Source: a virus (Duplodnaviria > Heunggongvirae > Uroviricota > Caudoviricetes). From it: a stretch of 64,000 bases of DNA. How positions within the stretch are numbered: the stretch's first letter is position 1; each line of letters opens with the position of its first letter. The stretch lies in the IMG/VR virus record IMGVR_UViG_3300011339_000564, positions 14,318 through 78,317 of that record; one strand, written 5' to 3'. Positions 445 to 58,140 of this stretch are shown here, one piece after another. The notes below the pieces were generated by a model, which saw only the letters and a program-made list of their open reading frames with translations, was not told the DNA's origin and did no database searches. Both the position numbers and the translations under genes were made by a program.

Positions 445-473
445 TTGACAATTTTAATTGTATAGTATATAAT
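445..473 (+). promoter_or_regulatory. sigma70-like promoter: TTGACA (445-450), 17-nt spacer, TATAAT (468-473). The ATG at 481 lies 7 nt downstream, so the transcript is probably leaderless.
   Basis: Exact consensus hexamers with 17-nt spacing. No SD sequence before the ATG at 481. Confidence 0.55.
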
Positions 474-480
474 ATATGTT

Positions 481-849
481 ATGCATATTTTGTCAACTCA
501 ATTAAAATTCACCAAAGAACAAATACTTGAATTTGGTAAAATAACCGGAGACTCGGGGCCTATACATAGCATTGATTTAATAGTACAAGGCGGATTAATT
601 ATAAGTTGTTTACCAAAAATTCTAAATGATATTATGACTAGAGATAATATTGATGAAGGTTATACTCATAGTGTTAGTATGATTTTAGAAGCAAAATTTA
701 GAAACAAATTGCCAGCCGATACATTAGTTACTGTTGATTTTATCCGCGAAGATACTACCAAATTAATTTCCAGATTTAGTTGGCGTGTATATAGTGTAGA
801 TACTGAATATTGTTTTGGTAAATGGGTAATTTACAAAGCTAAACGTTGA
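481..849 (+). CDS. hypothetical protein (122 aa)
   Basis: ORF immediately downstream of a consensus promoter; AT-rich phage codon usage. Confidence 0.5.
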   Translation: MHILSTQLKFTKEQILEFGKITGDSGPIHSIDLIVQGGLIISCLPKILNDIMTRDNIDEGYTHSVSMILEAKFRNKLPADTLVTVDFIREDTTKLISRFSWRVYSVDTEYCFGKWVIYKAKR

Positions 850-857
850 CTTGATTA

Positions 858-1661
858 ATGGATCATTATGTAACTTTAGGGGTAAACAAAAATGCTACCC
901 CGGACGATATTAAAAAAGCATATCGCAAACTGGCAAGTAAACATCATCCCGATAAAGGGGGCGATACCGCAACGTTTCAACAAATTGAAGAAGCATATCG
1001 TATTCTCAGTGATCCACAACAACGTCAACAATATGACAATCCAATGCCACAAGGCTTTGGGCAGAATTTTAATTTTAACGGTGGACCTGATATCTTCCAA
1101 GACTTTATGAGTCAGGTGTTTAGGCAACAACATCAGCAACATCAACACCGCCAGAGACAAAAACCAGTATTTAGAACCACAGTAACTGTAACACTTGAAC
1201 AGTCATACAAAGGTGAAGAGCAAGTTATCAGACTACAAACACCTACACTTACACATGCGGCAAATATTCAAACTCCGAAAGGGGTTCATAATGGTGACCA
1301 AGTTAAATTTGATAATATCATACAAGAGGCAAGTCTTATTGTAGAGTTTAAAATTATACCACATTTAAAATATGATAGAAATGGAAATGACTTGTTATCA
1401 AATCACCCGATATCAATATTAGATTTAATTACAGGGACATCGTTTGAGTTTACTACTATTTCAGGTAAAACATTTGAAGTTACAGTTAAACCTAAAACGC
1501 AACCATTTATACAATTAAAAATTACAGGACAAGGTATGCCCATACATGGAACCAATCAGTTTGGCGACCAAATAATCTTGTTAAAACCCTATATACCTGA
1601 TATAATTGACGAATCAATTATTAACAGCATTCTACAATCTAAAAATAAGGAATCAATATGA
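858..1661 (+). CDS. J-domain co-chaperone (DnaJ/CbpA-like, no zinc finger)
   Basis: N-terminal J domain with the HPD motif (KHHPDKGG). The context YVTLGV...AYRKLA is typical of J domains. A Gly/Phe-rich linker ([15 protein letters not shown]) follows. Confidence 0.8.
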
Positions 1662-3919
1662 CAAATTCTCCGGAAATAGAAAACATTATCGAACAATCGA
1701 TTGAGTATGCCAAACAACGTAAACATCAATATGTTACAGTTGAACACTTACTTCTTGCATTAATTAATCATCCATCTTTTACTAAATGCGTAGTTGGCTT
1801 TGGCATAGATGTTGAGTCAATGTCACACGAAATCACTGGTTATTTAGATAGCTTACACGCTATTGTTTATACTGAAACTGAAGTAGTTCCACGCAAAACA
1901 AGTAGTTTAGAACGGGTTATGAATCGTTCTGTCACTCAGGTTCTATTCACCGGACGTAGACAAGTTACTACTATTGATTTGTATCTAAGTATTGCAAGTG
2001 AAGGTAACAGTCACGCACATTATTTCATGCTCAAATACGGTATGCAAAAGAATGAGTTTGTTGCGTACTGGCAAAAACACTATAAGAATGAAGGCGCCGG
2101 CAATCTTACTGAAAATCAAGCAGATGAAATTCTTGAAGAATATACTATTAACCTAAGTGAACTTGCTAGTCAAGGTAAACTTGAACCATTGATTGGTCGT
2201 GCAAAAGAACTTGATGATATTATCAATGTGCTTGCTAAACGATTTAAATCAAATGTATTGATGGTGGGTGATCCGGGTGTAGGTAAAACTGCTATTGCCG
2301 AAGGTCTTGCACAAATGATGCACGACAAACAAGTGCCTGAATTTTTAGAAGGTCATCAACTATATTCATTAGAAGTTGGTTCATTACTTGCCGGCAGCAA
2401 ATATCGCGGGGACTTTGAAGAAAAAGTCAAAGCCATTATCGATGCATTGAATACTAAAAAGAAAGCTATTTTATTCATTGACGAAGCACATACTATGCAA
2501 GGTGCAGGTTCAAGCTCCAATGGTAGTGTTGACTTTGCTAATATGATTAAACCAGCAATTACTAAAGGCACATTGAAAGTTATTGCTAGTACTACTTGGG
2601 AAGAATACTACGAAAGTTTTGAGAAGGATCGTGCATTAATGCGTAGATTCTATCGTGTCTCAATTGATGAACCAAGCAACGAATCTACTGTTCGAATTCT
2701 TTCTGGACTAAGCACACGATTGAATGACTTTCATAGTGTTGAAATTCAAGAAGATGCAATTAAAGCATCAGTTGAAATGTCAACACGATACATTCACGAC
2801 CGAAAAAATCCTGATAAAAGTATTGACTTATTGGATGCGGCTTGTGCTAAACAACGTGTTGCAGGTAATAAAGGTGCACATATTACTAAAGACTTAGTGT
2901 TTGACCAAGTAGAGAAGTTTACGGGAGTTCCTGCAGATAAGATGAAGGGTGATAATTTTGACCTTATCAATAACCTTGAGATTAATATCAAAGGTAAATT
3001 ATATGGTCAAGATGAAACCGTTCAGCAAGTGTTAGAACGTATCTATGTTAACTTTGCTGGTATCGGTAATGATACTAAACCAACAGGTAGTTTCTTGTTT
3101 TTAGGCCCAACAGGTACAGGTAAAACAGAATTGGCTAAGTTGTTAAGTAAGAACCTTGACATGCCATTGCTCAAATATGATATGAGTGAATACGGAGAAA
3201 AACATTCAGTATCTAGTTTGATCGGTCCGCCCCCTGGTTATGTTGGCTTCGGTGACAGTCAAGTCGGTGGTGGCCGTTTAATCAACGACTTAAGTAAGAA
3301 CCCACATGCTATCATGTTGTTTGATGAAGTTGAAAAAGCACACCCTGATATATTTAACATCTTCTTACAGATGTTAGACGAAGGTACTATTACAGGAAGT
3401 AATGGTAAGAAGGTTAACTGTAAGAATGCTATTATCATTATGACTAGTAACTTAGGTAGTGCCGATGGTGAGCGCAATAACATTGGTTTTGGATCACAAG
3501 ACAAGCAAGGAGAAGATGATAAAGCATTGAAAGAATTCTTTAAGCCAGAATTCAGAAATCGTGTTGATTTGATTTGCAAGTTTAACAAACTTGATAGCTT
3601 GGCTATTAAGAAAATTGTTATTAAGTTTACTGAAGATTTGAAAAAATCATTAATTGAAAAACACAATATCAATTTAGTATTGACAGAACCAGTAGTTGAG
3701 TATCTAGCTGAACAAGGGTATGACAAGAAAATGGGTGCTAGACCACTAGCACGTAAGATTGACGAATTGATTCGTGTACCACTGAGTAAAAAAGTATTGT
3801 TTGAACGCATTAAAAATGCTACTATTACTGCCAACATTGTTGGTGACACTATTGATTTTGCAGTGACACACAAATTAACAGCTAAGGTGAATGACGATGG
3901 CATTATTGAGGTCAGTTGA
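1658..3919 (+). CDS. clpA: ClpA-like ATP-dependent Clp protease ATP-binding subunit (two AAA+ modules)
   Basis: Two Walker A motifs (GDPGVGKT and GPTGTGKT). An IGF loop (NNIGFGS) sits just before [10 protein letters not shown], as in the ClpA ClpP-docking loop. At 753 aa there is no long ClpB middle domain. Confidence 0.85.
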
Positions 3920-4631
3920 AAATATACCCGGTGTTAATTTTTATGAACATCGGGATCAGCTTTATTATAACAAATATGAATATAGAGCTAGATTTTATCT
4001 AGTGGGAGTTCGGTATACATGGTATATCAAAGATAATATTCAGGAACTAGTTGACAAATTAAATGGCCCTGCAATAGGCTACAGCTACAGTTACATAAAT
4101 GGAGAAACCAATAGAGATGAGATTAAAGAAAATATTCCTAAATTAAAGAAATTTTTACACTGGCGTAACGAAATTAAAAAGAAGAAAAATTCTACTATAA
4201 GAGTTGAGCATAATACTGTTGCGGTGTTCAGTAATGATTTACAAGAATTACACGACATTACAAATATTATTCCTGATATTGAAATAGATATCACACAAGC
4301 ACAAACATCTAATTTTGTTGGGGTTAGGTATTTTGTGCGTAAACCAAAACATAGTTATAGAGTTTATTTAAAATCTAGGCGTATTGAGGGTTCATTTGCT
4401 AAGGATTTACATGAATTGTTTAAAAAGAACAAAAAGTTGTATCCATGCAATTCGCTTAAACATTGGGCTAAGGGTAGTGCAAGCAATACTAATATGTGGA
4501 GGTATCGTTTTAGTAGTGCTACTCACTTTATTGACTATGATGATGAGAGCACCTTAAGCTATCTAGCAATATTGCACGGAGATATGCTTGGAAAACGCTA
4601 TAAATTAGAAAAACGTCCTGATCCTATCTAA
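3891..4631 (+). CDS. hypothetical protein (246 aa)
   Basis: Long ORF that overlaps the end of the ClpA-like gene. Confidence 0.5.
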   Translation: MTMALLRSVENIPGVNFYEHRDQLYYNKYEYRARFYLVGVRYTWYIKDNIQELVDKLNGPAIGYSYSYINGETNRDEIKENIPKLKKFLHWRNEIKKKKNSTIRVEHNTVAVFSNDLQELHDITNIIPDIEIDITQAQTSNFVGVRYFVRKPKHSYRVYLKSRRIEGSFAKDLHELFKKNKKLYPCNSLKHWAKGSASNTNMWRYRFSSATHFIDYDDESTLSYLAILHGDMLGKRYKLEKRPDPI

Positions 4632-4666
4632 AATGATAAATACTCTAATAAAATGGAGTATTTACC

Positions 4667-14245: not shown

Positions 14246-15515
14246 ATTAGAATTTACCCAGAAAGAATGGGAAAAGATAGAAAATAACGGGACTTATTGT
14301 CCCGGTTTATTTAACAGCAAATACATAGAAACTGACGGTGGACTGAGAGCATGTTGTGTTCAAGATTTAAAAGGTGAACATTATACAAATACAGAATCCT
14401 ATAACACCACTTCGTTAAAACAAGCCAGACAAAATTCATTATCAGGGATTAAAGATTCCAGTTGCGCTAGATGTTGGGAAAATGAATCATTAAACACCAG
14501 ATCATATAGACAAGGTCTAGTAGAGTCTGCTATTCACTGGAAAAGTAAAATCAAAGATAATATAAATGTTGACTATTCCATCACAGAACCCACCATAGAC
14601 TACTTAGACATTAGATTTGATAATATCTGTAATTTAAGATGTAGATATTGCAGTACTATTTTTAGTTCTAGTTGGAGACACGAAACTGAGTTACTAGAAA
14701 AAGAATTACCAATATTTAAATATATAAAAAGAAGATCAGTAGATACAAAAATATTGAATAGTGTAACCGATATTGACACGATATTAGCTGACCTTAGAAC
14801 AGTTAAAAAAATATTTTTTGCGGGTGGCGAGCCATTAGTAAACGATAAACATTATGAAGTGTTAGAATATCTAATAGATAATAATAGAACCAACATTGAA
14901 ATAACGTATAATACTAATTTTACAAACATTAAAAAAGTTATTCCTTATTGGAAAAAGTTTTCAAACATACACGTGGGTGCAAGTTTAGATGCAAATTATA
15001 AAAGAGGAGAATACATTCGTAAAAATCTCGTATGGGACCAGATTGTAGAAAATAGAAAATTAATGATTGCCGAAGTTCCTCATGTTCAATTTGAAATAAA
15101 TGCGTCAATGAGTATATTGAATGCGTATAATGTAGTAGATTTTCATAAAGAATGGATTAATGATAAATTAATTGGACCTTTTGATTTAACTGCATGGAAT
15201 TTTGTATCTAAACCTGAACATTATGATATTAGGAATTTACCTGACCATCATAAGATTAAATTAAAAGAAATATATCAAACTCATATTGATTGGTTAAACT
15301 CCCTCACATCAGGCAATGATATTAAGTTTAAAAGTAAAAATGATTCTAGTTTTGCTATTCAATCATATCAAGGTATAATTAATAGGTTAAATTTAAGTAG
15401 AAATTCATCTTTTGACAAATTTTGGGAATTTGACAAATGGTTAGATAATAATAGAGATGAAAACTTTTTTGATGTGTTTCCTGAGTATGAGGACTTTGCT
15501 AGATATTTTAGCTAA
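14238..15515 (+). CDS. radical SAM domain protein with an N-terminal Cys-rich extension
   Basis: CNLRCRYC is a CX3CX2C radical SAM cluster motif. Additional N-terminal cysteines (CPG...ACC...CARC). No C-terminal SPASM cysteines. GTG start assumed at 14238. Confidence 0.65.
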   Translation: MSKLEFTQKEWEKIENNGTYCPGLFNSKYIETDGGLRACCVQDLKGEHYTNTESYNTTSLKQARQNSLSGIKDSSCARCWENESLNTRSYRQGLVESAIHWKSKIKDNINVDYSITEPTIDYLDIRFDNICNLRCRYCSTIFSSSWRHETELLEKELPIFKYIKRRSVDTKILNSVTDIDTILADLRTVKKIFFAGGEPLVNDKHYEVLEYLIDNNRTNIEITYNTNFTNIKKVIPYWKKFSNIHVGASLDANYKRGEYIRKNLVWDQIVENRKLMIAEVPHVQFEINASMSILNAYNVVDFHKEWINDKLIGPFDLTAWNFVSKPEHYDIRNLPDHHKIKLKEIYQTHIDWLNSLTSGNDIKFKSKNDSSFAIQSYQGIINRLNLSRNSSFDKFWEFDKWLDNNRDENFFDVFPEYEDFARYFS

Positions 15516-16707: not shown

Positions 16708-16787
16708 AGTAATTTTTTCTATATTTTGTAAATTTTTATGCCAAATGGAATAAATATATGTTCATCATATTTATTATCGGAGGACAG

Positions 16788-17747
16788 ATGAGAAAACTTT
16801 TAGTATTATTAGCATTTATACCGTTAGTTGCTTTTGCTTGGCAACCAACAAAACCTGTAACAGTTATATTCCCAAATGGCCCGGGAGCAGGAAATGAAAT
16901 ATCATTTCGTATTGTAGCAGAGATTGTAGAAAAACAAACTGGTGCAAAATTTGTACCTGAATATAGGCCGGGAGCTGATGGCAATATAGCTATCAATCAC
17001 TTTGTAACAGTTCCTACTGATGGGCACACTATCAGTGTTCCGGCATGTCAGTCAAATTGGGTCACCCCTGAAGTGTGGTATCCAAAGGTAATCAAGTATA
17101 ACCCAATGGATTTAGAACCCATTGCTAATATTGCACGTAGTCCATTAGCATTCTGGGCGCATCCTAGCAGTAAGATTAATACTCCCGAAGAACTAGTAGC
17201 CGCTATTCGCAAAAAAGAGCGCCCTATTACAATAGCAATAGGTGGCGGCGGTCATAAGTTAGCAGTTGAATATCTTGCTGCCAAACTAAATGTACCGGGC
17301 GGTGATCGAATAGAAACAGCTATGTATAAAGGTCCAGCACAAGCGTTATTAGATGTAATGGGAGGTCACGTTGAATTTGGAGTGACCCCGGTTGCTGTTG
17401 GATACCCTCACGTACAAACAGGAAAACTAAAGTTAATTGGTATTGCTGATACTAGACCATTGCCTGGATTAGAAACAGCACCATTGATGAATAAGGCAGC
17501 ACCTGGATTAAGCATACATGGTTGCTGGAATATAGTTCTACCTCCCAATACCCCGCAGGATATACAAAAATGGTATGCTGAACACTTTGTTCCTGCAATA
17601 CGTAGCGCGGAAGCAGGCGCTAAATTCAAAGAAAACATGATGTACATTACACCCGAAGAACATAGCCCAGCAGGTGTTCGTGCTAGTATGTCGAGACTAC
17701 AGCAAGTTTGGCAACCGATTGCTAGAAGAATAGATCCTAATAAATGA
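16788..17747 (+). CDS. TctC/Bug-family periplasmic solute-binding protein (tripartite tricarboxylate transporter receptor-like)
   Basis: Signal peptide MRKLLVLLAFIPLVAFA. Length and motifs (PNGPGAGNEISFRIVAE, EYRPGADGNIAI) resemble the Bug/TctC family. Start chosen at the internal ATG 16788 with GGAGGA upstream. Confidence 0.55.
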   Translation: MRKLLVLLAFIPLVAFAWQPTKPVTVIFPNGPGAGNEISFRIVAEIVEKQTGAKFVPEYRPGADGNIAINHFVTVPTDGHTISVPACQSNWVTPEVWYPKVIKYNPMDLEPIANIARSPLAFWAHPSSKINTPEELVAAIRKKERPITIAIGGGGHKLAVEYLAAKLNVPGGDRIETAMYKGPAQALLDVMGGHVEFGVTPVAVGYPHVQTGKLKLIGIADTRPLPGLETAPLMNKAAPGLSIHGCWNIVLPPNTPQDIQKWYAEHFVPAIRSAEAGAKFKENMMYITPEEHSPAGVRASMSRLQQVWQPIARRIDPNK

Positions 17748-19981: not shown

Positions 19982-20540
19982 TTTTATTACAGAATCTGCC
20001 GTAGATGAGTTAGCAAAAAAACTACCCTCATTGACTAAACACGACTATGATACCATTGATACATTAATGAGAAGTATTGCCAGTAGACATAGCATGAGTG
20101 GTAATGCATTACATGATTTGTTTGTAAAAAAATATAAAAGAACACCCGATAACTGGATTAAACATAAATTAGACGAAGGTGATGATTCAGATTTGCAACA
20201 AGAAGTTGATAAATTCTGCGATTGGGCATGTAAACGATTGCATATAAAATCTAAACCTGAAATTGAACTCAGTATGGATACTGAAGAAGCACAAAATAAT
20301 CATCATACAGGTGGTCATCAAATGGGCGCTGATAGTATTTGGGTATATGTAAATAATCGTAACCTAGTTGATATACTACGCACAGTATTTCATGAATTGG
20401 TTCATGTGCGCCAAGGTGAATTAGATATGATTAAGCCGGGTGATAGTTACCCAGGTAGCCCAATTGAAGCAATGGCAGATATGCTTGCGGGCAAATACAT
20501 CAAAATTTATGGTGAACAGAACCATCATATCTTTCAATAA
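19968..20540 (+). CDS. putative small zinc metallopeptidase (HExxH)
   Basis: FHELVHVRQGE contains HExxH in a short (190 aa) protein. Confidence 0.45.
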   Translation: MHSSNFITESAVDELAKKLPSLTKHDYDTIDTLMRSIASRHSMSGNALHDLFVKKYKRTPDNWIKHKLDEGDDSDLQQEVDKFCDWACKRLHIKSKPEIELSMDTEEAQNNHHTGGHQMGADSIWVYVNNRNLVDILRTVFHELVHVRQGELDMIKPGDSYPGSPIEAMADMLAGKYIKIYGEQNHHIFQ

Positions 20541-20560
20541 TTGATTATTTGTGCTATAAT
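20532..20560 (+). promoter_or_regulatory. sigma70-like promoter (TTTCAA-17-TATAAT). The ATG at 20567 is 6-7 nt downstream, so the transcript is probably leaderless.
   Basis: TATAAT at 20555-20560. The -35-like hexamer TTTCAA sits 17 nt upstream. Confidence 0.4.
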
Positions 20561-20566
20561 GCACAG

Positions 20567-21163
20567 ATGATTAAGATTACAGTTCCATTACCCAAACAAA
20601 TTACTGTTGCATGTAGCGGCGGTGTTGATAGTATGGCTGTAGTTGACTTTCTAAGTCGCAAACACGATGTAACTATTGCCCATTTTAATCATAGAACACA
20701 AAACGGTGAACGTGCCGCCCAATTTGTTTCTGGGTATTGTGGTGATAATAATATTCCTATGCTATACGGATCACCTCGCAGTGAACGCGGAACAAAAGAA
20801 TCAATGGAAGAATATTGGCGCAGAGAACGATATGAATTCCTAAGCGAATTAGGACCGGTCATCACTTGTCATCATCTGGATGACTGTGTTGAGACATATG
20901 TTTGGTCTAGTTTACATGGTACAGCCAAAGTTATCCCACTCACTCGCAAAAATGTATTGCGCCCATTTTTAACTACACGTAAGAGTGAATTTGTTCGATG
21001 GTGTGAACAACATAAAGTTCCTTGGATTGAGGACGAATCAAACAAAGATACCAAATACACAAGAAATTACATTCGCAACGAAATGATGCCACATATATTG
21101 AAAGTCAATCCGGGCATTCATACTTTGGTCAAGAAGATTGTAGAAGGTAAGCAAAATACTTGA
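20567..21163 (+). CDS. tilS: TilS-like PP-loop ATPase: the tRNA(Ile)-lysidine synthetase catalytic domain only (about 198 aa)
   Basis: SGGVDS PP-loop. CHHLDDCVETYVW matches the TilS AHHLDDQxETFL block. RPFL...WIEDESNKDTKYTRNYIRNEMMP matches TilS RPLL...WIEDESNQD..Y.RN.LR. It lacks the QueC C-terminal Zn cysteines, so it is not QueC. Confidence 0.7.
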   Translation: MIKITVPLPKQITVACSGGVDSMAVVDFLSRKHDVTIAHFNHRTQNGERAAQFVSGYCGDNNIPMLYGSPRSERGTKESMEEYWRRERYEFLSELGPVITCHHLDDCVETYVWSSLHGTAKVIPLTRKNVLRPFLTTRKSEFVRWCEQHKVPWIEDESNKDTKYTRNYIRNEMMPHILKVNPGIHTLVKKIVEGKQNT

Positions 21164-21187
21164 CTTCTCTACGCAAGCCAAGTACAA
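21159..21187 (+). promoter_or_regulatory. sigma70-like promoter TTGACT-17-TACAAT
   Basis: Hexamers with 17-nt spacing. Followed by AAGGAG and the ATG at 21212. Confidence 0.5.
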
Positions 21188-21211
21188 TAACTAATTATTT
21201 AAGGAGAAACT

Positions 21212-24191: not shown

Positions 24192-24220
24192 TTGACATTT
24201 GCAATAAATGCCATTATAAT
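24192..24220 (+). promoter_or_regulatory. sigma70 consensus promoter TTGACA-17-TATAAT
   Basis: Exact consensus hexamers. Followed by SD AAAGGAAA and the ATG at 24265. Confidence 0.6.
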
Positions 24221-35055: not shown

Positions 35056-35084
35056 CTATAGCGGTCTTTGGACATCATCCCGCT

Positions 35085-35112
35085 TTACAAATTCTGCTGC
35101 CTATGCTATAAT
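35085..35112 (+). promoter_or_regulatory. sigma70-like promoter TTTACA-16-TATAAT upstream of queD
   Basis: Hexamers found; AGGAGAAA SD and the ATG at 35130 follow. Confidence 0.45.
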
Positions 35113-45662: not shown

Positions 45663-45691
45663 TTGACTTTATTGCGTAGTTGTGCTACACT
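45663..45691 (+). promoter_or_regulatory. sigma70-like promoter TTGACT-17-TACACT in the divergent intergenic region
   Basis: Hexamers with 17-nt spacing upstream of uvdE (ATG 45721). Confidence 0.4.
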
Positions 45692-45720: not shown

Positions 45721-46749
45721 ATGTACACAAATCAATCAGTCAAACGTATCGGCTTTGCTTGCAAATGGGCAGAAATCAACAAGAAAGGTGAAATTGCTTC
45801 AGCCGAAGGTCTTAACACTGGCGGCACAACTCATGCTTGGGCAAAGCGTAATAGTCGTAATGTAGTAGAAGAAAAGATTATGGATGTTGCAAAACGCAAT
45901 ATTATGAATACACATGCACTAGTTAAACGTGTCGCTACACTAGAACCACAATTACGTATGTTGCGTCTTACTAGCGATATGCTGAGTTTTTACACACTAG
46001 ATGAATATAAAGGCTTTTGGCAAAGTAGTGATGTACAAAACAGCTTGGCTCGATGGTTTGCCCCGATCGGGGAAACAGCACGTGCCAATGATGTTCGTCT
46101 TAGTTTTCACCCTGACCAGTTTGTAGTTTTAGCAAGCGACCGTGAAGAAGTAGTAAATAAGAGTATTGAAGAATTTGAATATCATTGTGACATGGTTCGT
46201 TGGATGGGCTATGGCAAAGAGTTTCAAGACTTCAAAGTAAATGTACATATCTCGGGACGTAAAGGCCCACAAGGCATCAGGGATGTGTACAACAGATTGT
46301 CGCCAGAAGCGAGAAACACACTAACACTAGAGAATGAGGAATACACACATGGACTTACTGACTGCTTATCATTATCTGACCTCGTACCTACGGTCATGGA
46401 CATACATCACAATTGGATTCGTGAGGGAGAATATATTTCCCCCAATGATGACAACGTTAAAAAGGTTATTGATAGTTGGCGCGGTATTAGGCCTACTTTA
46501 CATTACTCCGTCAGCCGTGAAGATGTACTTGTCGGGCATTCCGGATCACAGTTACCCGATCATGGTGCGTTGATTGAATCTGGATACAGTAAGCAAAAAC
46601 TTCGGGCACATAGTGATTACTATTGGAACGAAGCTGTGAACGATTGGGCATTGACATTCATTGATAAATTTGATATGATGTGTGAATCGAAGGCAAAGAA
46701 TCTTGCCAGCTTTAAATTATTAGAGAGATATAAATGTTTGACAAAATAA
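45721..46749 (+). CDS. uvdE: UV-damage endonuclease (UvdE/UVDE family)
   Basis: RLSFHPDQFVVLAS, VNVHISG, LTLENEE, MDIHHNW and RAHSDYYW align with conserved UvsE/UVDE blocks (RTSFHPNQF, INIHIGG, MTLENDD, FDFHH, RSHADYV). Confidence 0.8.
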   Translation: MYTNQSVKRIGFACKWAEINKKGEIASAEGLNTGGTTHAWAKRNSRNVVEEKIMDVAKRNIMNTHALVKRVATLEPQLRMLRLTSDMLSFYTLDEYKGFWQSSDVQNSLARWFAPIGETARANDVRLSFHPDQFVVLASDREEVVNKSIEEFEYHCDMVRWMGYGKEFQDFKVNVHISGRKGPQGIRDVYNRLSPEARNTLTLENEEYTHGLTDCLSLSDLVPTVMDIHHNWIREGEYISPNDDNVKKVIDSWRGIRPTLHYSVSREDVLVGHSGSQLPDHGALIESGYSKQKLRAHSDYYWNEAVNDWALTFIDKFDMMCESKAKNLASFKLLERYKCLTK

Positions 46750-47191: not shown

Positions 47192-47220
47192 TTGACATAT
47201 ATTCCATTTAACTGTATAAT
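47192..47220 (+). promoter_or_regulatory. sigma70 consensus promoter TTGACA-17-TATAAT
   Basis: Exact hexamers. SD AAGGGG and the ATG at 47256 follow. Confidence 0.6.
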
Positions 47221-47255: not shown

Positions 47256-48440
47256 ATGGCTTATTTCTATAAATGGAAAAACAATAGTCAAAAACGCAAA
47301 CTTGTCCCAATCGACAATAAACTCAAACGTGAGAAGAATACCTTTAAGGTTAAGGATGTTGTTGGATTAGCAAAAGAATTGAATGATCCTTCCAATACAG
47401 GATGGCATGACAACATTGCACACTATACTGCAAACAATATTTATTTTGAACTTAACAAGCGTCCTAAGCATGACCAAATTGAATTGCGTCTGTTACTTAG
47501 TGACGAGGACATTCAACGGTTGTTAGATGGTGGACACTGTGCTGACATTTCGGCCCCGGGAGTATTTGATGAGCGCAGACTTAATCCCATTTTTGCTGTA
47601 AAATTACCTAACGAAGATTATTTTCACGTTACTGATGGCCAACACACTCTTGCAGTTATTGCTGGATTAGCACTAGCAGGTAGATTGAAACTTAATGGTA
47701 AAATCATTGAGTCAAAAGATTGGTTGAGCGTTAAGGTTGATGTGATGTATGTAGAAAGTGATAGCCTAAGTTTTGCACGTAAACACTTCCTATATATCAA
47801 TGGTGAAGGTAAGAAACCAATTGAAGAATATGATACTCATGCAGTTAATACATTATGTGTTCGTTTAGATAGTGATACTGATCCAGATTCTCTCAAAGCA
47901 GAAGAATTGCAGGCTATTGCAGAAGAATATGGTATTACTACATTACCTAAAAATCATTCTCAATCAGAAGAACCAAACGCAGTAACTCACATTAGTGGTA
48001 TGAATAAGATGACTGCTGAGGCATGGCGCTTCTTATGTGCAAATCACGCAAAATATTGGTCAAGCGAGAAAGTTGACAATGCTGAATTTGGTTTGTTTGG
48101 TGGACTGTATGAACATTGTACTAAAACTAAATCTGGAATACGTACTGATACTAAAGCATTCACTGAATTTCTCCGTGATTTTAATGCTACAGTAAAAGAA
48201 GTTTTTGTAAATCCAAATGGATTAAAGGAAGCTACTACTGAAGCATATAAAAAGTATTCACTGCAAACAGTTAAGTATGAAAAAAGTCCTGATAAAACAG
48301 TTGCATTGGCAATCGTACTAAAGATTTACAAAAAAGCAGGTGGCACACATATTGTTCCCGGAGTTATTATGGCTCACGCACAAGATGGGTACGATGTTAC
48401 TGATTTTCTTTCTGATGAAATTAAGGCAAAGTTACCATGA
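47256..48440 (+). CDS. DGQHR/ParB-like (DndB-like) domain protein
   Basis: HVTDGQHTLAVIAG resembles the DGQHR motif of DndB/ParB-like proteins. Confidence 0.45.
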   Translation: MAYFYKWKNNSQKRKLVPIDNKLKREKNTFKVKDVVGLAKELNDPSNTGWHDNIAHYTANNIYFELNKRPKHDQIELRLLLSDEDIQRLLDGGHCADISAPGVFDERRLNPIFAVKLPNEDYFHVTDGQHTLAVIAGLALAGRLKLNGKIIESKDWLSVKVDVMYVESDSLSFARKHFLYINGEGKKPIEEYDTHAVNTLCVRLDSDTDPDSLKAEELQAIAEEYGITTLPKNHSQSEEPNAVTHISGMNKMTAEAWRFLCANHAKYWSSEKVDNAEFGLFGGLYEHCTKTKSGIRTDTKAFTEFLRDFNATVKEVFVNPNGLKEATTEAYKKYSLQTVKYEKSPDKTVALAIVLKIYKKAGGTHIVPGVIMAHAQDGYDVTDFLSDEIKAKLP

Positions 48441-48859
48441 AATGGTTCTATGTTATTAAAACAAGTCACAATGACACACTAGGATTTGGAATTACTATTC
48501 ATTTGTCTAAACGATTAGTTGATGGTTATTGTAATCCTAGTGCGGCAAAACAACAATTTTCAAAATTGTATTATGGAGAAAATCTCCATATCAATCAATT
48601 AGAAAAATATATCAAACAGGTATATAGTAATAAACGATTAAACTTTACTAACACACGTACCCGTAAATTAGAATGGATAGATCCAAAATATGACATTTCA
48701 ATTGAGGATTTGATTGATACTGTTGAGGATCGTATTTTGGGCTACCCATTACCTATCAAACGTATCAGGGATAAATTCTTACCATACACCCTTGATAATC
48801 CGGATATCTTTAAAACAATCAATGAGAATCCTGATTTGTTTTTGGAACAACTCGGTTGA
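48437..48859 (+). CDS. hypothetical protein (140 aa)
   Basis: ORF. Confidence 0.5.
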   Translation: MKWFYVIKTSHNDTLGFGITIHLSKRLVDGYCNPSAAKQQFSKLYYGENLHINQLEKYIKQVYSNKRLNFTNTRTRKLEWIDPKYDISIEDLIDTVEDRILGYPLPIKRIRDKFLPYTLDNPDIFKTINENPDLFLEQLG

Positions 48860-48884
48860 CAACATCTAAATAGTAGTATATAAT
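48856..48884 (+). promoter_or_regulatory. sigma70 consensus promoter TTGACA-17-TATAAT. The ATG at 48891 is 6 nt downstream, so the transcript is probably leaderless.
   Basis: Exact hexamers; no SD. Confidence 0.55.
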
Positions 48885-48890: not shown

Positions 48891-49889
48891 ATGAAATACG
48901 CACTCATTGACACAGCAAATACATTCTTCCGTGCCCGTCACATTGCATCACGTAATAGTGATACATGGGAAAAGATCGGCATGGCCCTACACTTGACATT
49001 GGCAAGTACTAATCAAATTGTTCGCAAGTTTGGTGTGGATCACGTTGTGTTTTGTTTAGAGGGTCGTAGCTGGCGCAAAAGTTTCTACGAGCCATACAAG
49101 AAAAATCGCATTGTTGATACACTATCACAAACAGAAGCCGAGATTGAAGAAAATAAAATGTTCTGGGAGACGTATGAAGTATTTACAAATTTTTTACGTG
49201 AGAAAACTAATGTTAGTGTCCTTCGTCATGCTGAGGCTGAGGCTGATGACTTAATTGCACGTTTCATTCACTTGCATCCCGATGATGAACATTTTATTAT
49301 CAGTAGCGATAGCGACTATGTGCAATTGATTACCGAAAATGTAAAACAATATAATGGGGTAGCTAATCAACTGATTACGTTAGATGGTTACTTTGATGAC
49401 AAGGGTAAGATTGTCAAAGATAAGAAAACTAAAGAACCCAAGCTACTAGAAGATCCACAATATTTGCTATTTAAAAAATGTATGCGGGGTGATGGTACTG
49501 ACAATGTGTTTAGTGCTTATCCTGGTGTGCGTGAGAAAGGTAGCAAGAATAAAGTTGGCTTGATGGAAGCATATGCTGATAGAGAAAAACAGGGCTACCA
49601 GTGGAACAATCTACTACTTCAACGCTGGCTAGACCATAATGGAGTAGAACATCGTGTACGTGAGGATTATGAACGTAATCGTATACTAATTGATTTGACT
49701 GCACAACCTCAGGATATCAAAGACAAGGTTGATGCTAGTATCATTGAGGGTGTTCGTACAACTACTACCCCTCAAGTTGGTATTCACTTTATGCGATTCT
49801 GTGGCAAATATGAGTTGACTAAGATTAGTGAACAAGCAGAAACATATGCGAAATGGTTGAATAGTCCTTACATGGGAAGTTTAGTATGA
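48891..49889 (+). CDS. 5'-3' exonuclease / flap endonuclease (RNase H / FEN family)
   Basis: EADDLIARFIH and IISSDSDYVQL match the conserved acidic blocks of T4 RNase H / T5 D15-type exonucleases. Confidence 0.75.
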   Translation: MKYALIDTANTFFRARHIASRNSDTWEKIGMALHLTLASTNQIVRKFGVDHVVFCLEGRSWRKSFYEPYKKNRIVDTLSQTEAEIEENKMFWETYEVFTNFLREKTNVSVLRHAEAEADDLIARFIHLHPDDEHFIISSDSDYVQLITENVKQYNGVANQLITLDGYFDDKGKIVKDKKTKEPKLLEDPQYLLFKKCMRGDGTDNVFSAYPGVREKGSKNKVGLMEAYADREKQGYQWNNLLLQRWLDHNGVEHRVREDYERNRILIDLTAQPQDIKDKVDASIIEGVRTTTTPQVGIHFMRFCGKYELTKISEQAETYAKWLNSPYMGSLV

Positions 49890-50092
49890 ATGAAATAATT
49901 AAAGAACTAATGAAACATGCCGGTACTGATACTAGTGGTAAATGGATGGGTGTAGAACACGCTGAAAAGTTCACCGAATTGATTGTGCAGGAATGTGCTG
50001 ATGTTCTATTAAAGTGGAAGGGTGAACCCTTTCCATTTGATGAAGACCTTGCGGCAAGTCTAATTAAAGAACATTTCGGAGTTGGATCGTGA
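49886..50092 (+). CDS. small 'FAELIVREC' family paralog
   Basis: KFTELIVQECADV...KEHFGVGS. Confidence 0.45.
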   Translation: MNEIIKELMKHAGTDTSGKWMGVEHAEKFTELIVQECADVLLKWKGEPFPFDEDLAASLIKEHFGVGS

Positions 50093-50292
50093 ACGAACGA
50101 ATTAAACAGATTGCAGATGACTGCGGATTGTATATTGCCTACGACAATAGAGAAGTGACTAACAAAGAGTTATCATTTTTTGCCGAGACAATCGTGCGAG
50201 AATGTATGGATGTTGTTAGTAAAGCCACTGCCAGTCCAAACGGATATCAGGCTCTTATGAAACATTTCGGAGTTGATAATGTGGGCACGTGA
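50089..50292 (+). CDS. small 'FAELIVREC' family paralog
   Basis: MNERIKQIADD...FFAETIVRECMDV...MKHFGVDN. Confidence 0.45.
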   Translation: MNERIKQIADDCGLYIAYDNREVTNKELSFFAETIVRECMDVVSKATASPNGYQALMKHFGVDNVGT

Positions 50293-53169: not shown

Positions 53170-53333
53170 CAGAAGAAAAGAAAAGTAAAAATCCGTTTAT
53201 TAATTTAGCTAATGCCGCTAAGAAAGATAGTAAGCATCCTGGATTAGGTAAAGCTCCTAAATCACAAGGACCTAAACCAACTAAGGGTAACGGTGGTGCA
53301 ACGGTTGTTCGTAGAAGCGGTCGCGGTGGTTAA
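53166..53333 (+). CDS. small basic Gly/Lys-rich protein (55 aa); speculative
   Basis: ATGA overlap with the previous gene. Confidence 0.3.
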   Translation: MTEEKKSKNPFINLANAAKKDSKHPGLGKAPKSQGPKPTKGNGGATVVRRSGRGG

Positions 53334-53818
53334 TACCATCTACCTTCATTACGCATACGTTTAATGAGAGTTAGATAAGTGCTACATACACCATAGCATT
53401 TTAATTGCACAGTACTAAACAAACTACGGTCATCTATTTCGGGAAGAAAGATAATACTAGTATTGTTTATAGCAACAGTACCCGGAGTGATTAGTTTCCC
53501 ACTACTTGTAGTAACTGGGGTACTCTCAGTAGCATCGGGAAACCAAAAGTAATTAGGATATAATTTACTCGGTTGAGTAGTTAACCAAGTTTGCATGTCT
53601 GTATTTCTAGCGTTGATCCAAAAACGTACACCTTGTAGATATTTTTCGGTCACTTCAGTAGTTGGTTCAAAACTACCCAAATATAGTTTTCCATCTACTC
53701 TCCAAACATCTACCATGCAGGAATATCCGGCGTTGAATGCTTTTCCTATTTGTGCTGGGGTATTAGCATCTTCAAAATTTTGGCTATCAAAGATACCCTG
53801 GTAAGATATATATAACAT
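53330..53818 (-). CDS. hypothetical protein (162 aa) on the minus strand
   Basis: ORF. Confidence 0.4.
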   Translation of the reverse strand: MLYISYQGIFDSQNFEDANTPAQIGKAFNAGYSCMVDVWRVDGKLYLGSFEPTTEVTEKYLQGVRFWINARNTDMQTWLTTQPSKLYPNYFWFPDATESTPVTTSSGKLITPGTVAINNTSIIFLPEIDDRSLFSTVQLKCYGVCSTYLTLIKRMRNEGRWY

Positions 53819-53916
53819 AATATGTATTTATGTCAACGGAATACATAGCTGCCGCGTTATATATATGTAGACACAAAAAATGTTGTTCTACTTTCATTAA
53901 CATAAAGGAAATCAAA

Positions 53917-54237: not shown

Positions 54238-54520
54238 TCCATATAGGCTCACTGCAATTAGAATCTGGGGTTTCGATCCCAATAAGGTTCTAGTTGATGA
54301 TGAGGATATATTAGTTAATTCCCGTCGTATCATATTAAAGATTAAAACTTCTTTAGATAATGATGTGGAATTAACTGATTATGTCAAGTTAAGATTGTTT
54401 CTGGCCAGAGAAATGGCTATGTCAAAATATAGAGAAATCTATCAGACGGCATAAATATACATGAAGTTATGAGTTCTTCATAAAAACTCAATTTTTAAAC
54501 ACACACATAGGAGATATAAA

Positions 54521-54796: not shown

Positions 54797-54798
54797 TT

Positions 54799-54963
54799 AT
54801 GAAACTTTTAGGAATGCTAATAGCGTTCCTAGGTTTCTCTACAGACACCTACGGAACTGAGTTGGAAAAATATATAGTCGGCCGAAATCCACAAGATGTA
54901 GGTGACATTGAACGATTAACATACGAGTTCCATCGCAAACAATCTGATTGGAGATTTCTATGA
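54799..54963 (+). CDS. tiny ORF (54 aa), first of a chain of three ATGA-coupled micro-ORFs (54799-54963, 54960-55043, 55039-55140)
   Basis: Serial ATGA overlaps; no other ORFs fill 54797-55169. Confidence 0.3.
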   Translation: MKLLGMLIAFLGFSTDTYGTELEKYIVGRNPQDVGDIERLTYEFHRKQSDWRFL

Positions 54964-55169
54964 ACACACTTAAACAACTTTTTAACAGCCTACTAGAGGC
55001 AATACAATCTATCAAAGACTACAAAGCGAGTAAAATGAAATGAATCAATGGCAACCTATGACTGACGAAGATTGGGAATGGGTTAATCATGGTACATTAC
55101 CAAAACCGGTTGACATCCCAGTCAAAACAAACTATAATTAACACACATACACTTTTTTAAGGAAATAAA

Positions 55170-55445
55170 ATGACAGACTTTACACCAAAATTGCCAGAAG
55201 TTAAATTTAACAAAAATGGCTACGAACTACGTACAGATATTTTAGCTATGGCTAAAGATGTTGTTCAACAAGAATATCAAATGAAATTTCAAGGTTGGGA
55301 ACTAACAGCAAAACGTGATGAGAAAACAGGTCAACTAGTAACAACAGTTGGTATGCCTGAGTTTCCAGGTCTAGATAAGGTCCTTGAAACTGCTGAAAAA
55401 ATGTACGGCTTTGTAAATCAAGGTCAAACACAATCTAAGAAGTAA
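55170..55445 (+). CDS. hypothetical protein (91 aa)
   Basis: SD AAGGAAAT lies upstream. Confidence 0.5.
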   Translation: MTDFTPKLPEVKFNKNGYELRTDILAMAKDVVQQEYQMKFQGWELTAKRDEKTGQLVTTVGMPEFPGLDKVLETAEKMYGFVNQGQTQSKK

Positions 55446-55456
55446 TTCTTAACATG

Positions 55457-55479
55457 AAGGCTCTTTGTGAGCCTTCCTT
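55457..55479 (+). terminator. hairpin terminator (GAAGGCTC tttgt GAGCCTTC)
   Basis: Perfect 8-bp inverted repeat directly after the stop at 55445, followed by a T-rich tract. Confidence 0.55.
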
Positions 55480-55498
55480 TACGGCTATAAATAATTTT

Positions 55499-56122
55499 AT
55501 GAAATATCATATTTTAGGAAGACCGGGCGGAAGCAGACCACTAGTATCAACTATTTTTAATATGATGGGATACAATTCGTATTACGGCTCTTTAGATAAA
55601 CCCAATGACAATGATACAGCAATATTAATAACATATCAATACGATATGTTCGCATGGGTAATGACCTCTAGATACGTTGAAGATATATTATACAATTATA
55701 ATTTAGGTAATAAAGAAAACTTTAATCATTGGCTTACTCACTATGTGGGTCCAGGCACACCGTCAACCCCAGATGATATCAGCATGAGTGATTGGGCGGC
55801 GCACGTAGTGAACAGTTATAAACACATAGGAATGTTTGCTCCTTTAAACGGTATCTATGAAGATTTAGAATTATATTGTAAAGATTCAAAATGTATGCGA
55901 CACGAATTGCCGTTAGAATTAATTGTAGATAGTCCAAATCAGGCTATAATTAGGATAGAAGAAATTACAGAAAAAGTTATGGATCAACAAATTAAGAATT
56001 TTTTCTTAAAAGAAGTTGAGAAACAAAAAATATTACTTTCTCCATGGATGGATGATTACTATAAAGCAAAAGAAAAATCCACAGACAGTTATCTGTGGCT
56101 TAAAAAGCAATCCTCAATTTGA
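55499..56122 (+). CDS. hypothetical protein (207 aa from the ATG after the hairpin)
   Basis: The track ORF 55454 would run through the hairpin, so the internal ATG 55499 is preferred. Confidence 0.45.
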   Translation: MKYHILGRPGGSRPLVSTIFNMMGYNSYYGSLDKPNDNDTAILITYQYDMFAWVMTSRYVEDILYNYNLGNKENFNHWLTHYVGPGTPSTPDDISMSDWAAHVVNSYKHIGMFAPLNGIYEDLELYCKDSKCMRHELPLELIVDSPNQAIIRIEEITEKVMDQQIKNFFLKEVEKQKILLSPWMDDYYKAKEKSTDSYLWLKKQSSI

Positions 56123-56153
56123 CATAAATTCCAAATAGTGTTACAATAAGGGT

Positions 56154-57455
56154 ATGAAAAAATTTATACTCATACTATCTATTGTTCTATCCGGTTGTGG
56201 GGGCGGTGGTGGCACCAGTACTGGCGATAGTTCGCAGGCAGTATCAGTAAAATCAACGTGTACCCTTGCTGTAAATTCAAATACAGTTCCACAATCATAT
56301 TATGGCACTAATTCAATACCCACACCATTATCAAAATTTGATAATACTATTCTAAGAGGTATTGGTCTTAAAGATTATCATCCTAGATTTAATCTGGCAA
56401 ATACAAATTGCACTCAAGATGAACATTCCAGATTACTATATCAAAAAACACTAGACAGATTAAAACTATTAAACGTAGATTATGTTGAAGTATATCAATA
56501 TGGCCCGGTAGTTGATTTTAATGCTACTACTTGGGTAGTAGATAAATCTACATGGCAAATACCAGAAAGTGAATTGATCTGGTTTATTAAAGAGGCTAAT
56601 AGTAGAAACATTAAAGTAAATATTATTTGGCAATTATGGCCAACTGATAGTAAAGGTAATACTATAAATTCAAGTTATGATATGTCAGAAGCGGAAATGT
56701 TAAAAGTATTGCGGGGATGGCATAATATTATTGTAGATTTAGCTAAGTTTGGTGGTAGTAATGGTTTGAATATATTAACCGTACATTGGAATGCATTTCA
56801 TTTTCCAGTAACTAACAAATATAAAGAATCTGCCACCTTAGAATTTTTATCAATCATTAATGATGTGCGACAACATTTTAATGGTAAATTATTTATGGGA
56901 GCATCGCCTGTATTTTTTGATAAGAGAATTGTTGAAAAGGTCGATGGTATTATTATTCCATTAACTCCTAGTAATTGGTCTAGAAATGATGATATTAATA
57001 TATCTGTCAGTTTGTTAAAAAGCCGATATTTAGATAATATATTAGGAAAAGCATTAGAACTTTCTATGGCTACTGGATTAGATTTAAAAAGTATTCCGGT
57101 TATCTGGGATTTTAATATTCAGAGCAGAGATAAAGCATTGAGTGAAGGTTGGGTAGAAGATGGATTTTGTATTAAAGAAGGTGGCGATGGTGCCCCTGTA
57201 AGTTGGGGTAATCCTGAATGTGCCAAACAAATGAATTATATAACCGATTTTAGTATTCAAGCATTAGCTATTGAAGGTGCATTTCAGGCTATTAAAGAAC
57301 AAACATTAATTAAAACATATGGTATTAACTTTAGTACTAGTTATTGGCATACTGATACGTTAGTACCCGGGCAAGAAGGCTTTCCCAACTTGTCGCAATC
57401 TATTCGAGGAAAACCTGCTGAGAATGTAGTCAAACATTGGTTCTCCAAAAATTGA
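56154..57455 (+). CDS. lipoprotein (433 aa), function unknown
   Basis: Signal peptide plus the lipobox LSGC, followed by a poly-Gly linker (CGGGGGTSTGDSS). Confidence 0.6.
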   Translation: MKKFILILSIVLSGCGGGGGTSTGDSSQAVSVKSTCTLAVNSNTVPQSYYGTNSIPTPLSKFDNTILRGIGLKDYHPRFNLANTNCTQDEHSRLLYQKTLDRLKLLNVDYVEVYQYGPVVDFNATTWVVDKSTWQIPESELIWFIKEANSRNIKVNIIWQLWPTDSKGNTINSSYDMSEAEMLKVLRGWHNIIVDLAKFGGSNGLNILTVHWNAFHFPVTNKYKESATLEFLSIINDVRQHFNGKLFMGASPVFFDKRIVEKVDGIIIPLTPSNWSRNDDINISVSLLKSRYLDNILGKALELSMATGLDLKSIPVIWDFNIQSRDKALSEGWVEDGFCIKEGGDGAPVSWGNPECAKQMNYITDFSIQALAIEGAFQAIKEQTLIKTYGINFSTSYWHTDTLVPGQEGFPNLSQSIRGKPAENVVKHWFSKN

Positions 57456-57480
57456 CAATAAATGGGTATTGTGCTATAAT
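57452..57480 (+). promoter_or_regulatory. sigma70 consensus promoter TTGACA-17-TATAAT
   Basis: Exact hexamers. The shared flanks (ttgacaataaat...gggtaTATAAT) recur at 57789 and 58112. Confidence 0.6.
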
Positions 57481-57512
57481 AGAATCTTAAACAGTAAAGA
57501 AAAGGAAACGAA

Positions 57513-57785
57513 ATGTCAGCACTCACAGAATACACATTGGAAATTTACAAAACTGACAAGCGTACCAAAGAAGGTAAGCGTTTGGTTTCAAAGCAAGATT
57601 TTGCACCAGTAACAGTAGACTACATTAATGCCGTTGCAGACGGTAAGCGTAGGTTGGGTTTTGTTGTTGAAGTGTTCGAAACCTTTGTTACCCGCAAAAA
57701 CTTGATGGCAGGTAAGTCATTCCAAGAACGTTATGACACCCCTTACTTTTGTTCACCAAGTTCCGAATCTTACTGGTCAATGTAA
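57513..57785 (+). CDS. hypothetical small protein (90 aa)
   Basis: SD AAAGGAAA; downstream of a consensus promoter. Confidence 0.5.
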   Translation: MSALTEYTLEIYKTDKRTKEGKRLVSKQDFAPVTVDYINAVADGKRRLGFVVEVFETFVTRKNLMAGKSFQERYDTPYFCSPSSESYWSM

Positions 57786-57788
57786 AGG

Positions 57789-57817
57789 TTGACAGTAATT
57801 GGATTTGGGTATATAAT
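57789..57817 (+). promoter_or_regulatory. sigma70 consensus promoter TTGACA-17-TATAAT
   Basis: Exact hexamers. Confidence 0.6.
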
Positions 57818-57848
57818 ACTTGTATTGACTTGATTAAAGGACTACAAA

Positions 57849-58115
57849 ATGGCTAAGAAAATCTCTATCAAAGTGTTTGCAGACCCCGGACATGCTTGGG
57901 CACGTTTTCCCAAAGCAAAATTGGTCAGTCTCGGTATTGCTGACAAAATTAGTACTTATAGTTACATGAATGGTTCCAATGCATTCTTGGAAGAGGACTG
58001 TGATTTGTCTGTATTGCTGGTTGCTCTCCGTAATCGTGGCTATGAGATTAAATTTAACGAAAGTCACACAAACCGTCAAAGCAAAATCCGCAATTATTTT
58101 ACCTACAAGGCTTGA
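57849..58115 (+). CDS. hypothetical small protein (88 aa)
   Basis: SD AAAGGA; downstream of a consensus promoter. Confidence 0.5.
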   Translation: MAKKISIKVFADPGHAWARFPKAKLVSLGIADKISTYSYMNGSNAFLEEDCDLSVLLVALRNRGYEIKFNESHTNRQSKIRNYFTYKA

Positions 58116-58140
58116 CAATAAATCACTTTGGGTATATAAT
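58112..58140 (+). promoter_or_regulatory. sigma70 consensus promoter TTGACA-17-TATAAT
   Basis: Exact hexamers overlapping the end of the previous ORF. Confidence 0.6.

Follow-up and report, generated by a model that had tools for sequence, protein, structure and literature searches.

The stretch of viral DNA analysed here, 64,000 nucleotides (nt) of IMG/VR record IMGVR_UViG_3300011339_000564 (Duplodnaviria; Heunggongvirae; Uroviricota; Caudoviricetes; positions 14,318 to 78,317 of the record) and referred to below as the window, carries a family of sigma-70-type promoters, some of which lie only 6-7 nt from a start codon, so that the resulting mRNA is predicted to have no leader. Judged from its predicted proteins, the window belongs to the genome of a jumbo phage in the T4 superfamily that has not been cultivated. 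The family-B DNA polymerase (PolB) is 44-49% identical to those of Sinorhizobium phage Phosso, Agrobacterium phage Atu_ph07 and the Klebsiella phages RaK2 and K64-1, and the FEN nuclease (a 5'-3' exonuclease resembling T4 RNase H) is 49% identical to that of Pseudomonas phage PA5oct; other genes encode proteins resembling DnaJ, ClpB, the N-terminal domain of TilS, QueD, UvdE and TctC, together with an ATP-dependent ligase. The GC content is 36-38%. A megablast search with 12 kb of the window against 50,697 phage records returned no near-identical DNA, indicating that the window is not from a known phage; related contigs in IMG/VR and the JGI metagenomes number in the hundreds. An exact-protein look-up of FEN returned no record, a tRNA scan found none, and Rfam gave no match at gathering thresholds. 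The open reading frame (ORF) at 481 (ORF481), the lipoprotein gene at 56154 and the small ORFs 3' of the promoters were without Pfam, PHROG or NCBIfam function.

Exact copies of TTGACA-N17-TATAAT were located by pattern search, which yielded eight sites in 64 kb, all on the plus strand, against a chance level of 0.06 estimated from dinucleotide shuffles (none of 100 shuffles reached eight), an over-representation of about 130-fold. Allowing up to one mismatch, 16 sites were found where 1.5 were expected. Each exact site lies within a short intergenic gap, or overlaps its edge, and points toward the next gene (Table 1). An earlier reading of the stretch, made from the letters and without database searches (the sequence-only reading), had listed seven exact sites, all correctly placed, and had missed the eighth at 55110-55138. 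The three variants it had named also exist, two of them at slightly different coordinates (21160-21188 rather than 21159-21187, and 35084-35112 rather than 35085-35112) and the third, 45663-45691, unchanged; further one-mismatch sites beyond its list begin at 46651, 56119, 61208 and 62696. Its description of the family as near-perfect suits the exact sites and does not suit the site at 20532, which matches the -35 consensus at only 3 of 6 positions and is an extended -10 promoter. Per-position profiles of the FEN and TilS-like upstream regions, together with alignments, showed that the -35, TG and -10 positions are kept in diverged relatives and that the flanks are variable. On this sequence evidence, some 14 sites are predicted promoters of the host RNA polymerase carrying its housekeeping sigma factor.

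Table 1. Promoters, associated genes and predicted RNA hairpin of the window, in order of position.
Feature	Coordinates	Strand	Details
Exact promoter TTGACA-N17-TATAAT	445..473	+	-10 at 468-473, ends 7 nt before ATG 481; leaderless class (predicted)
ORF481, 122 amino acids, no family match	481..849	+	First gene ahead of DnaJ-like (858-1661) and ClpB-like (1658-3919) genes
Extended -10 promoter	20532..20560	+	-35 TTTCAA 20532-20537, TG 20552-20553, TATAAT 20555-20560; 6 nt to ATG 20567
Predicted conserved RNA hairpin	20541..20574	+	14 bp, -16.4 kcal/mol, z = -4.5
TilS N-terminal-domain-like PP-loop ATPase gene, 198 amino acids	20567..21163	+	PF01171 1.8e-35; TIGR02432 126 bits (cut-off 93.6); predicted leaderless
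TTGACT-N17-TACAAT promoter	21160..21188	+	23-nt leader, AAGGAG SD, ATG 21212
Exact promoter	24192..24220	+	Directly 3' of PolB stop; 44-nt leader, AAGGA SD, ATG 24265
TTTACA-N17-TGcTATAAT promoter	35084..35112	+	17 nt to ATG 35130 (QueD-like gene), AGGAG SD
Weak variant TTGACT-N17-TGcTACACT, 9/12	45663..45691	+	Divergent gap before UvdE-like gene; start probably ATG 45727
TTGACA-N17-TATGAT promoter with TG	46651..46679	+	54 nt to ATG 46734; weak SD (GAGAG)
Exact promoter	47192..47220	+	35-nt leader, AAGGGG SD, ATG 47256
Exact promoter	48856..48884	+	Overlaps stop of ORF 48437-48859; -10 at 48879-48884, 6 nt to ATG 48891; leaderless class (predicted)
FEN / 5'-3' exonuclease (T4 RNase H-like) gene	48891..49889	+	PF02739 9.5e-18; predicted leaderless
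Exact promoter	55110..55138	+	3' of terminator-like hairpin 54807-54833; 31-nt leader, AAGGA SD, ATG 55170
TTGACA-N17-TGtTACAAT promoter	56119..56147	+	-10 ends 6 nt before ATG 56154; fourth leaderless candidate
Lipoprotein gene (MKKFILILSIVLSGC..., lipobox residues 12-15), no family match	56154..57455	+	Possibly leaderless
Exact promoter with TG	57452..57480	+	32-nt leader, AAGGA SD, ATG 57513
Exact promoter	57789..57817	+	31-nt leader, AAGGA SD, ATG 57849
Exact promoter	58112..58140	+	34-nt leader, AGGAG SD, ATG 58175
TTGACG-N17-TGaTATAAT promoter	61208..61236	+	29-nt leader, AAGGA SD, ATG 61266 (ATP-dependent DNA ligase)
TTGACA-N17-TATACT site	62696..62724	+	Within 58-amino-acid ORF; target gene uncertain
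SD, Shine-Dalgarno sequence.

Spacing between promoter and start codon

Fourteen strong promoters could be assigned a downstream gene, and for each the gap between the last base of the -10 hexamer and the ATG was measured. The values fall into two groups, one of 6, 6, 6 and 7 nt and the other of 17, 23, 29, 31, 31, 32, 34, 35, 44 and 54 nt, and no promoter of the window lies at 8-16 nt. The close class comprises the TilS-like gene, FEN and the lipoprotein gene at 6 nt, and ORF481 at 7 nt. Leaderless mRNAs had been proposed beforehand for three of these genes, with spacings of 7 nt to ATG 481 and 6 nt to ATGs 20567 and 48891 that proved correct; the lipoprotein gene is a fourth candidate that had been overlooked. 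The accompanying statement that the three ATGs lack a Shine-Dalgarno (SD) sequence was borne out and extends to the fourth, gaps of 6-7 nt leaving no room for one. The companion claim that strong SD sequences follow the other promoters holds at nine ATGs (21212, 24265, 35130, 47256, 55170, 57513, 57849, 58175 and 61266), which have AAGGAG, AAGGA, AGGAG or AAGGGG a few nt upstream, and fails at 45727 and 46734, where the SD is weak or absent.

Finding four of 14 promoters at 6-7 nt has a probability of 9e-4 if the -10 hexamer is placed uniformly 0-60 nt upstream of a gene, and of 9e-8 relative to random genomic placement. When the distinct strong promoters of the window and of 166 related loci were pooled, 25 were found at 6 nt, one at 7 nt, one at 9 nt and none at 10-15 nt, the remainder consisting of two at 1 nt and all others at 16-60 nt; an SD core is present in most leadered gene families of this set. 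All four close genes of the window start with ATG, and their annotated N-termini appear secure, with homologues aligning from residues 1-3 and in-frame stops just upstream. Folding of the initial 50 nt of each predicted leaderless RNA gave -0.1 to -5.3 kcal/mol, a stability no greater than that of shuffles, and all four 5' ends are thus unstructured. RNA polymerase of the E. coli type most often starts at the seventh base after the -10 hexamer. A 6-nt gap makes the A of the ATG that seventh base (the eighth in ORF481), so that the predicted start of transcription coincides with the start codon.

For the TilS-like gene, 56 distinct upstream contexts from relatives at 65-100% protein identity were compared. 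The -10 hexamer ends exactly 6 nt before the start in 52 of them and at 5 or 7 nt in the other four; among the 52, the TG of the extended -10 is present in 50 and the start codon is ATG in 51. The spacing is kept while the intervening 6-mer itself changes (at least 12 different ones, including GCATAG, AGATAA, ACATGA and GCACAG), and the layout occurs in three or more upstream neighbourhoods unrelated to one another. An in-frame TAG immediately precedes the ATG in many relatives, which makes any other start impossible in those variants. Homologues at 59% identity or less, some of them marine, lack the layout and have starts of the SD type or overlapping starts, indicating that it is a derived trait of one clade. 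A similar sigma-70-type arrangement at the 190-amino-acid gene 5' of the TilS-like gene was dismissed, as it is not conserved (7 nt in related locus L091, 11 nt in the window).

Wherever a -35 element is present in the TilS-like relatives it reads TTGCTA or TTGCAA at 17 bp; an interpretation of the TTGCTA variants as MotA boxes was rejected because their spacing is wrong. These deviant elements, and the poor -35 in the window, would be accommodated if the sites, the TilS-like one especially, formed a middle-type class read by a phage-modified polymerase or a phage factor, in which case the geometry would be kept and the timing and factor would differ. Serratia phage BF, a cultured relative, has a promoter type of its own (TGGAAC/TGAAAC...TGGTATAAT) and encodes a late sigma factor, which speaks for such a scheme. 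We consider it improbable, given that eight sites match the bipartite consensus at 12 of 12 positions with the optimal 17-bp spacing, that an extended -10 (TGn) compensates for a weak -35 with ordinary sigma-70, and that a scan of roughly 25 of the about 100 ORFs of the window revealed no gene resembling those for MotA, AsiA or a sigma factor.

In FEN, where homologues align from residue 3 and an in-frame TAA lies 9 nt upstream of the start, the -10 hexamer was found 6 nt before the ATG in 20 of 41 distinct contexts; among these 20 are 11 distinct 6-mers, and the gene that lies upstream is one of several. Three further contexts have the ATG two codons more upstream, again at 6 nt. All of the 6-nt variants start with ATG, and the only lineage with a GTG start has a leader containing AGGTG, which fits the requirement of leaderless translation for a 5'-AUG (Brock et al. 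2008, as cited in PMC5312081). Two of three ORF481 homologues (loci L161 and L163, at 79% and 53% protein identity) likewise have TTGACA-N17-TATAAT, 6 nt and ATG.

That the TATAAT-like hexamers beside these ATGs are not promoters at all, and reflect chance in AT-rich DNA, a hairpin loop or an A/U-rich translational enhancer, is very hard to reconcile with the full TTGACA at exactly 17 bp in three of the four close sites and with the TG conserved at the fourth, or with the strand specificity and excess of the exact bipartite motif. The base composition of the window would favour such an explanation, as would the observation that -10-like hexamers alone (neither -35 nor TG required) show only a small excess 6-7 nt before ORF starts. 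The hexamer of the TilS-like promoter does double as a hairpin loop, as described below; a loop, however, has no reason to read TAnAAT after TG.

The TilS-like hairpin and read-through transcription

The promoter of the TilS-like gene coincides with a predicted RNA hairpin (Table 1), a feature that goes beyond what the sequence-only reading had observed. Its 5' arm (20541-20554) is the promoter spacer, its loop (20555-20560) is the -10 hexamer, and its 3' arm (20561-20574) consists of the 6 nt after the hexamer, the AUG and the bases following it, so that the predicted +1 falls within this arm. Across 31 distinct variants the mean z was -2.8, and the AUG was predicted to be paired in nearly all. 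In an ungapped alignment of the inner eight pairs, 84% of cells form standard pairs, compared with 15-65% when the partners were slid. Cells changed on both sides numbered 18, compared with 8.2 in shuffles, and the covariation score was 0.264, compared with 0.192 (0 of 500 shuffles as high in either case), although the variants are related by descent and these counts are not independent events. Two further results also weigh against a conserved structure: the number of covarying pairs, three, was not above that of the shuffles (355 of 500), and RNAalifold detected no consensus fold in the TilS-like region.

Distant members (65-78% identity) form other stems around the same loop, namely CATAG/CTATG, TTACGT/ACGTGA and GTGC/GCAC. 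The occurrence of G-U pairs, and a sense RNA that exceeds the antisense in stability in 30 of 31 variants, suggest that the structure forms in RNA and is not a DNA site; on these grounds, and because the two arms change together instead of staying constant, a DNA cruciform or the site of a dimeric repressor was rejected. An intrinsic terminator of the upstream gene was rejected as well, since no U-tract follows the stem. In the modelled scheme, a read-through transcript would contain both arms of the hairpin and its SD-less AUG would be buried, whereas a transcript from the TilS-like promoter would lack the 5' arm and present the AUG free at its 5' end. Translation of the TilS-like gene would then depend on the origin of the transcript. 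FEN shows the opposite pattern, with a start region predicted to be unusually unstructured.

The promoters could be real and the four ATGs nevertheless be read mainly from longer read-through transcripts, each adjacent promoter serving mainly the genes downstream; ribosomes would then initiate independently of an SD at an unstructured A/U-rich start, or after termination on the upstream gene. Several observations weigh against leaderless expression, and most of them suit this alternative. About half of the window genes have no clear SD, so that a missing SD is not diagnostic here. In the remaining FEN relatives, about half of the total, the promoter lies 26-29 nt upstream and the leader is mostly devoid of an SD, which implies that FEN can be translated SD-independently from an internal position in an RNA. 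None of 200 shuffles was as weakly structured as the FEN start region, and this would also favour internal initiation on read-through RNA. No terminator was seen between either FEN or the TilS-like gene and the gene upstream, and in the window the stop codon of the upstream gene sits immediately at the base of the TilS-like hairpin, where a terminating ribosome could open the stem. The third ORF481 homologue (L162) has a hairpin where the promoter would be expected, and the only full-length homologue of the lipoprotein gene (L164) has its promoter 32 nt upstream; the layout is therefore not conserved there, and the case for this gene comes from the window. Finally, the argument takes for granted both the start-site preference of the host and its ability to translate leaderless mRNAs.

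Internal initiation, however, does not require a 6-nt spacing that stays fixed across unrelated neighbourhoods while the 6-mer varies, nor the almost invariable ATG of the 6-nt variants alongside an SD leader in the GTG variant of FEN. The TilS-like AUG would be base-paired in read-through RNA, and a transcript that starts at an ATG is either translated there or leaves its first gene untranslated. Predominant use of read-through transcripts was accordingly judged unlikely, with FEN as its most plausible case. Leaderless expression is the probable reading for the TilS-like gene, FEN and ORF481, and is proposed with less confidence for the lipoprotein gene.

From motif and spacing we infer the positions of transcription starts, the use of the host sigma factor, the timing and the mode of translation as follows. 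The approximately 14 host-sigma promoters would serve genes expressed before the polymerase is reprogrammed, and would be early in that sense. Most would give rise to a leader of 17-54 nt with an AAGGA(G) SD, leading to the usual 30S start. At the four close promoters the predicted +1 would be the A of the ATG, leaving no leader, and recognition would proceed via the 5'-terminal AUG. The proposal that the promoters are real and feed two modes of initiation is thus supported in silico, by the two separate distance classes, by an SD that most of the long-leader class and none of the close class have, and by conservation in relatives.

Other loci and indications of the host

ORF481 heads a co-oriented run (481-4631) with the genes for the DnaJ-like protein and a ClpB-like AAA+ disaggregase, which in its gene content looks like a phage-borne chaperone module. 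An antisense promoter-like site matching at 11 of 12 positions (TTGACA-N16-TATTAT, 469-496, minus strand) overlaps the promoter and start of ORF481 and is probably a by-product of TATA-rich palindromic sequence. A 10-bp inverted repeat around the same promoter and start (451-460 and 499-508) was taken as chance, as it is not conserved in L161. The hairpin of L162 (1970-2012) is a perfect 12-bp one (CAAGCGATACAT / ATGTATCGCTTG) in which the ATG begins the 3' arm.

The leadered FEN relatives L013-L024 and L072-L079 have in common the SD-less leader CATATTAAYA..TACCTTTAT, in which an ACCTTT stretch resembles an anti-SD and not an SD; the cultured relatives PA5oct, XaC1 and BF differ in having ordinary SD leaders at FEN. 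The 54-nt distance from the 46651 promoter to ATG 46734 is kept in relatives. Several small adjacent ORFs end alike (...GAACATTTCGGAGTTGAAGAATG, at 59302-59324 and 60541-60563), with similar ends near 50070-50092 and 50255-50275. The shared end GAACATTTCGGAGTTGAAGAATG provides GGAG and an overlapping ATG for the next ORF, and these ORFs resemble a tandem array of small paralogues within the promoter-rich region.

On the minus strand, CATAAATA (53825-53832), which resembles a T4 late promoter, lies 6 nt before ATG 53818 of the gene at 53330-53818. In relatives (such as L119, L143, L087, L099 and L103), 12 of 18 distinct (C/T)ATAAATA sites before an ORF lie 4-7 nt from the first ATG, in five gene families. 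A second promoter class of the form (C/T)ATAAATA may also give leaderless transcripts. The exact motif TATAAATA is depleted in the window (2 found, 8 expected). In Serratia phage BF (L331, 170-220 kb), about ten sites of the type (A/T)TG(G/A)AAC...TGGTATAAT lie 13-81 nt before gene starts; none of the roughly ten promoters of this type in that 50-kb stretch is at 6-7 nt, and no leaderless class was recognised there.

The TctC/Bug family of periplasmic solute receptors, of which the window encodes a homologue at 16758-17747 (PF03401, 1e-21), is greatly expanded in Burkholderiales. This gene is a weak hint toward a host of that order; a scan of bacterial genomes with its protein gave no close bacterial relatives. 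The corresponding scan with FEN gave a single match, a 2.1-kb contig (L170, CAIUKX010000078.1) binned in a Flavobacteriales metagenome-assembled genome, where FEN starts with TTGACA-N17-TATAAT, 6 nt and ATG as in this phage clade. Flavobacteriales were discounted as the host, since so small a contig is easily mis-binned by composition and TTGACA/TATAAT with an AAGGAG SD is unlike Bacteroidota; the placement is probably a binning artefact.

Relation to known systems

Consensus-like early promoters for host sigma-70 are found in T4, in T5 and in T7 (A1-A3), where ordinary leaders follow them. The window resembles these phages in its near-perfect hexamers, its 17-bp spacing, the many co-oriented copies before small genes or short operons and the frequent TG or TA directly ahead of the -10; it is not unusual for a lytic phage to have host-type consensus promoters. 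The difference lies in the four of 14 promoters that abut a start codon. Deinococcus-Thermus and Actinobacteria are established sources of leaderless genes whose -10 adjoins the ORF. Among phages the classic example is lambda cI transcribed from PRM, which serves as a model in studies of leaderless mRNAs; such mRNAs are otherwise familiar from the repressors of temperate phages and from bacteria with many leaderless genes. In Deinococcus, a -10 motif 6-7 bp before the ORF has been validated experimentally as giving leaderless mRNA (PMC12340547). The close genes of the window share with these the TANNNT-type -10 at 6-7 bp, the missing SD and the ATG; they differ from the -10 box alone in having a full consensus -35 (the TilS-like site, with its extended -10 and weak -35, apart), and from the Deinococcus and Actinobacteria genes in belonging to a lytic jumbo phage in which close promoters are a minority. 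No report of leaderless mRNAs in jumbo, lytic or T4-like phages was found; the literature search yielded only phiKZ, which has no leaderless transcripts (PMC8244752), and AR9, with leaders of 26-491 nt (PMC5312081). The predicted leaderless promoters of this phage are a new example of known mechanisms and not a new mechanism.

For the TilS-like hairpin the closest parallel is T4, in which a hairpin in long transcripts masks the start region of e, soc, 49 and I-TevI, and a promoter inside it gives translatable RNA without the 5' arm (PMC3014915, PMC2988022); segB and mobE of phage Aeh1 are further members of this set. The modelled TilS-like locus likewise has a hairpin pairing with the AUG and a promoter inside it. 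The T4 cases, however, use the gp55-dependent late promoter TATAAATA, whereas the TilS-like site is a sigma-70-type extended -10 promoter with a TTG-type -35 in relatives. In T4 the hairpin masks the SD and the released RNA keeps an SD leader, whereas the TilS-like transcript is predicted to have neither leader nor SD, and here the -10 hexamer itself forms the loop. With no T4 late promoter and no SD leader, the TilS-like locus would work like the T4 cases while standing outside that set. As modelled, its promoter-in-hairpin design would be a new variant of the T4 design, combining a sigma-70-type promoter with a leaderless start.

It is possible, and we put it forward only tentatively, that an abundant clade of uncultivated jumbo phages employs leaderless mRNAs as a regular mode of expression, from sigma-70 promoters (FEN, the TilS-like gene, ORF481 and others) and maybe also from (C/T)ATAAATA sites, with the TilS-like hairpin acting as a switch that responds to transcript origin. 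In practical terms, gene callers and start prediction based on ribosome-binding sites would mis-score genes of the close class, and the 6-nt rule offers a simple means of fixing starts in a clade widespread in metagenomes. The TilS-like hairpin, at 34 nt, would extend a classic regulatory design of T4 to another promoter class and another mode of translation. The conserved set of predicted leaderless genes, comprising FEN, the gene for the TilS-like tRNA-modification enzyme and the first gene before those for the DnaJ-like and ClpB-like proteins, suggests a route of synthesis for some phage proteins that depends neither on the SD nor on 30S binding; speculatively, its advantage could be that it still functions when normal initiation is disturbed by the phage or its host.

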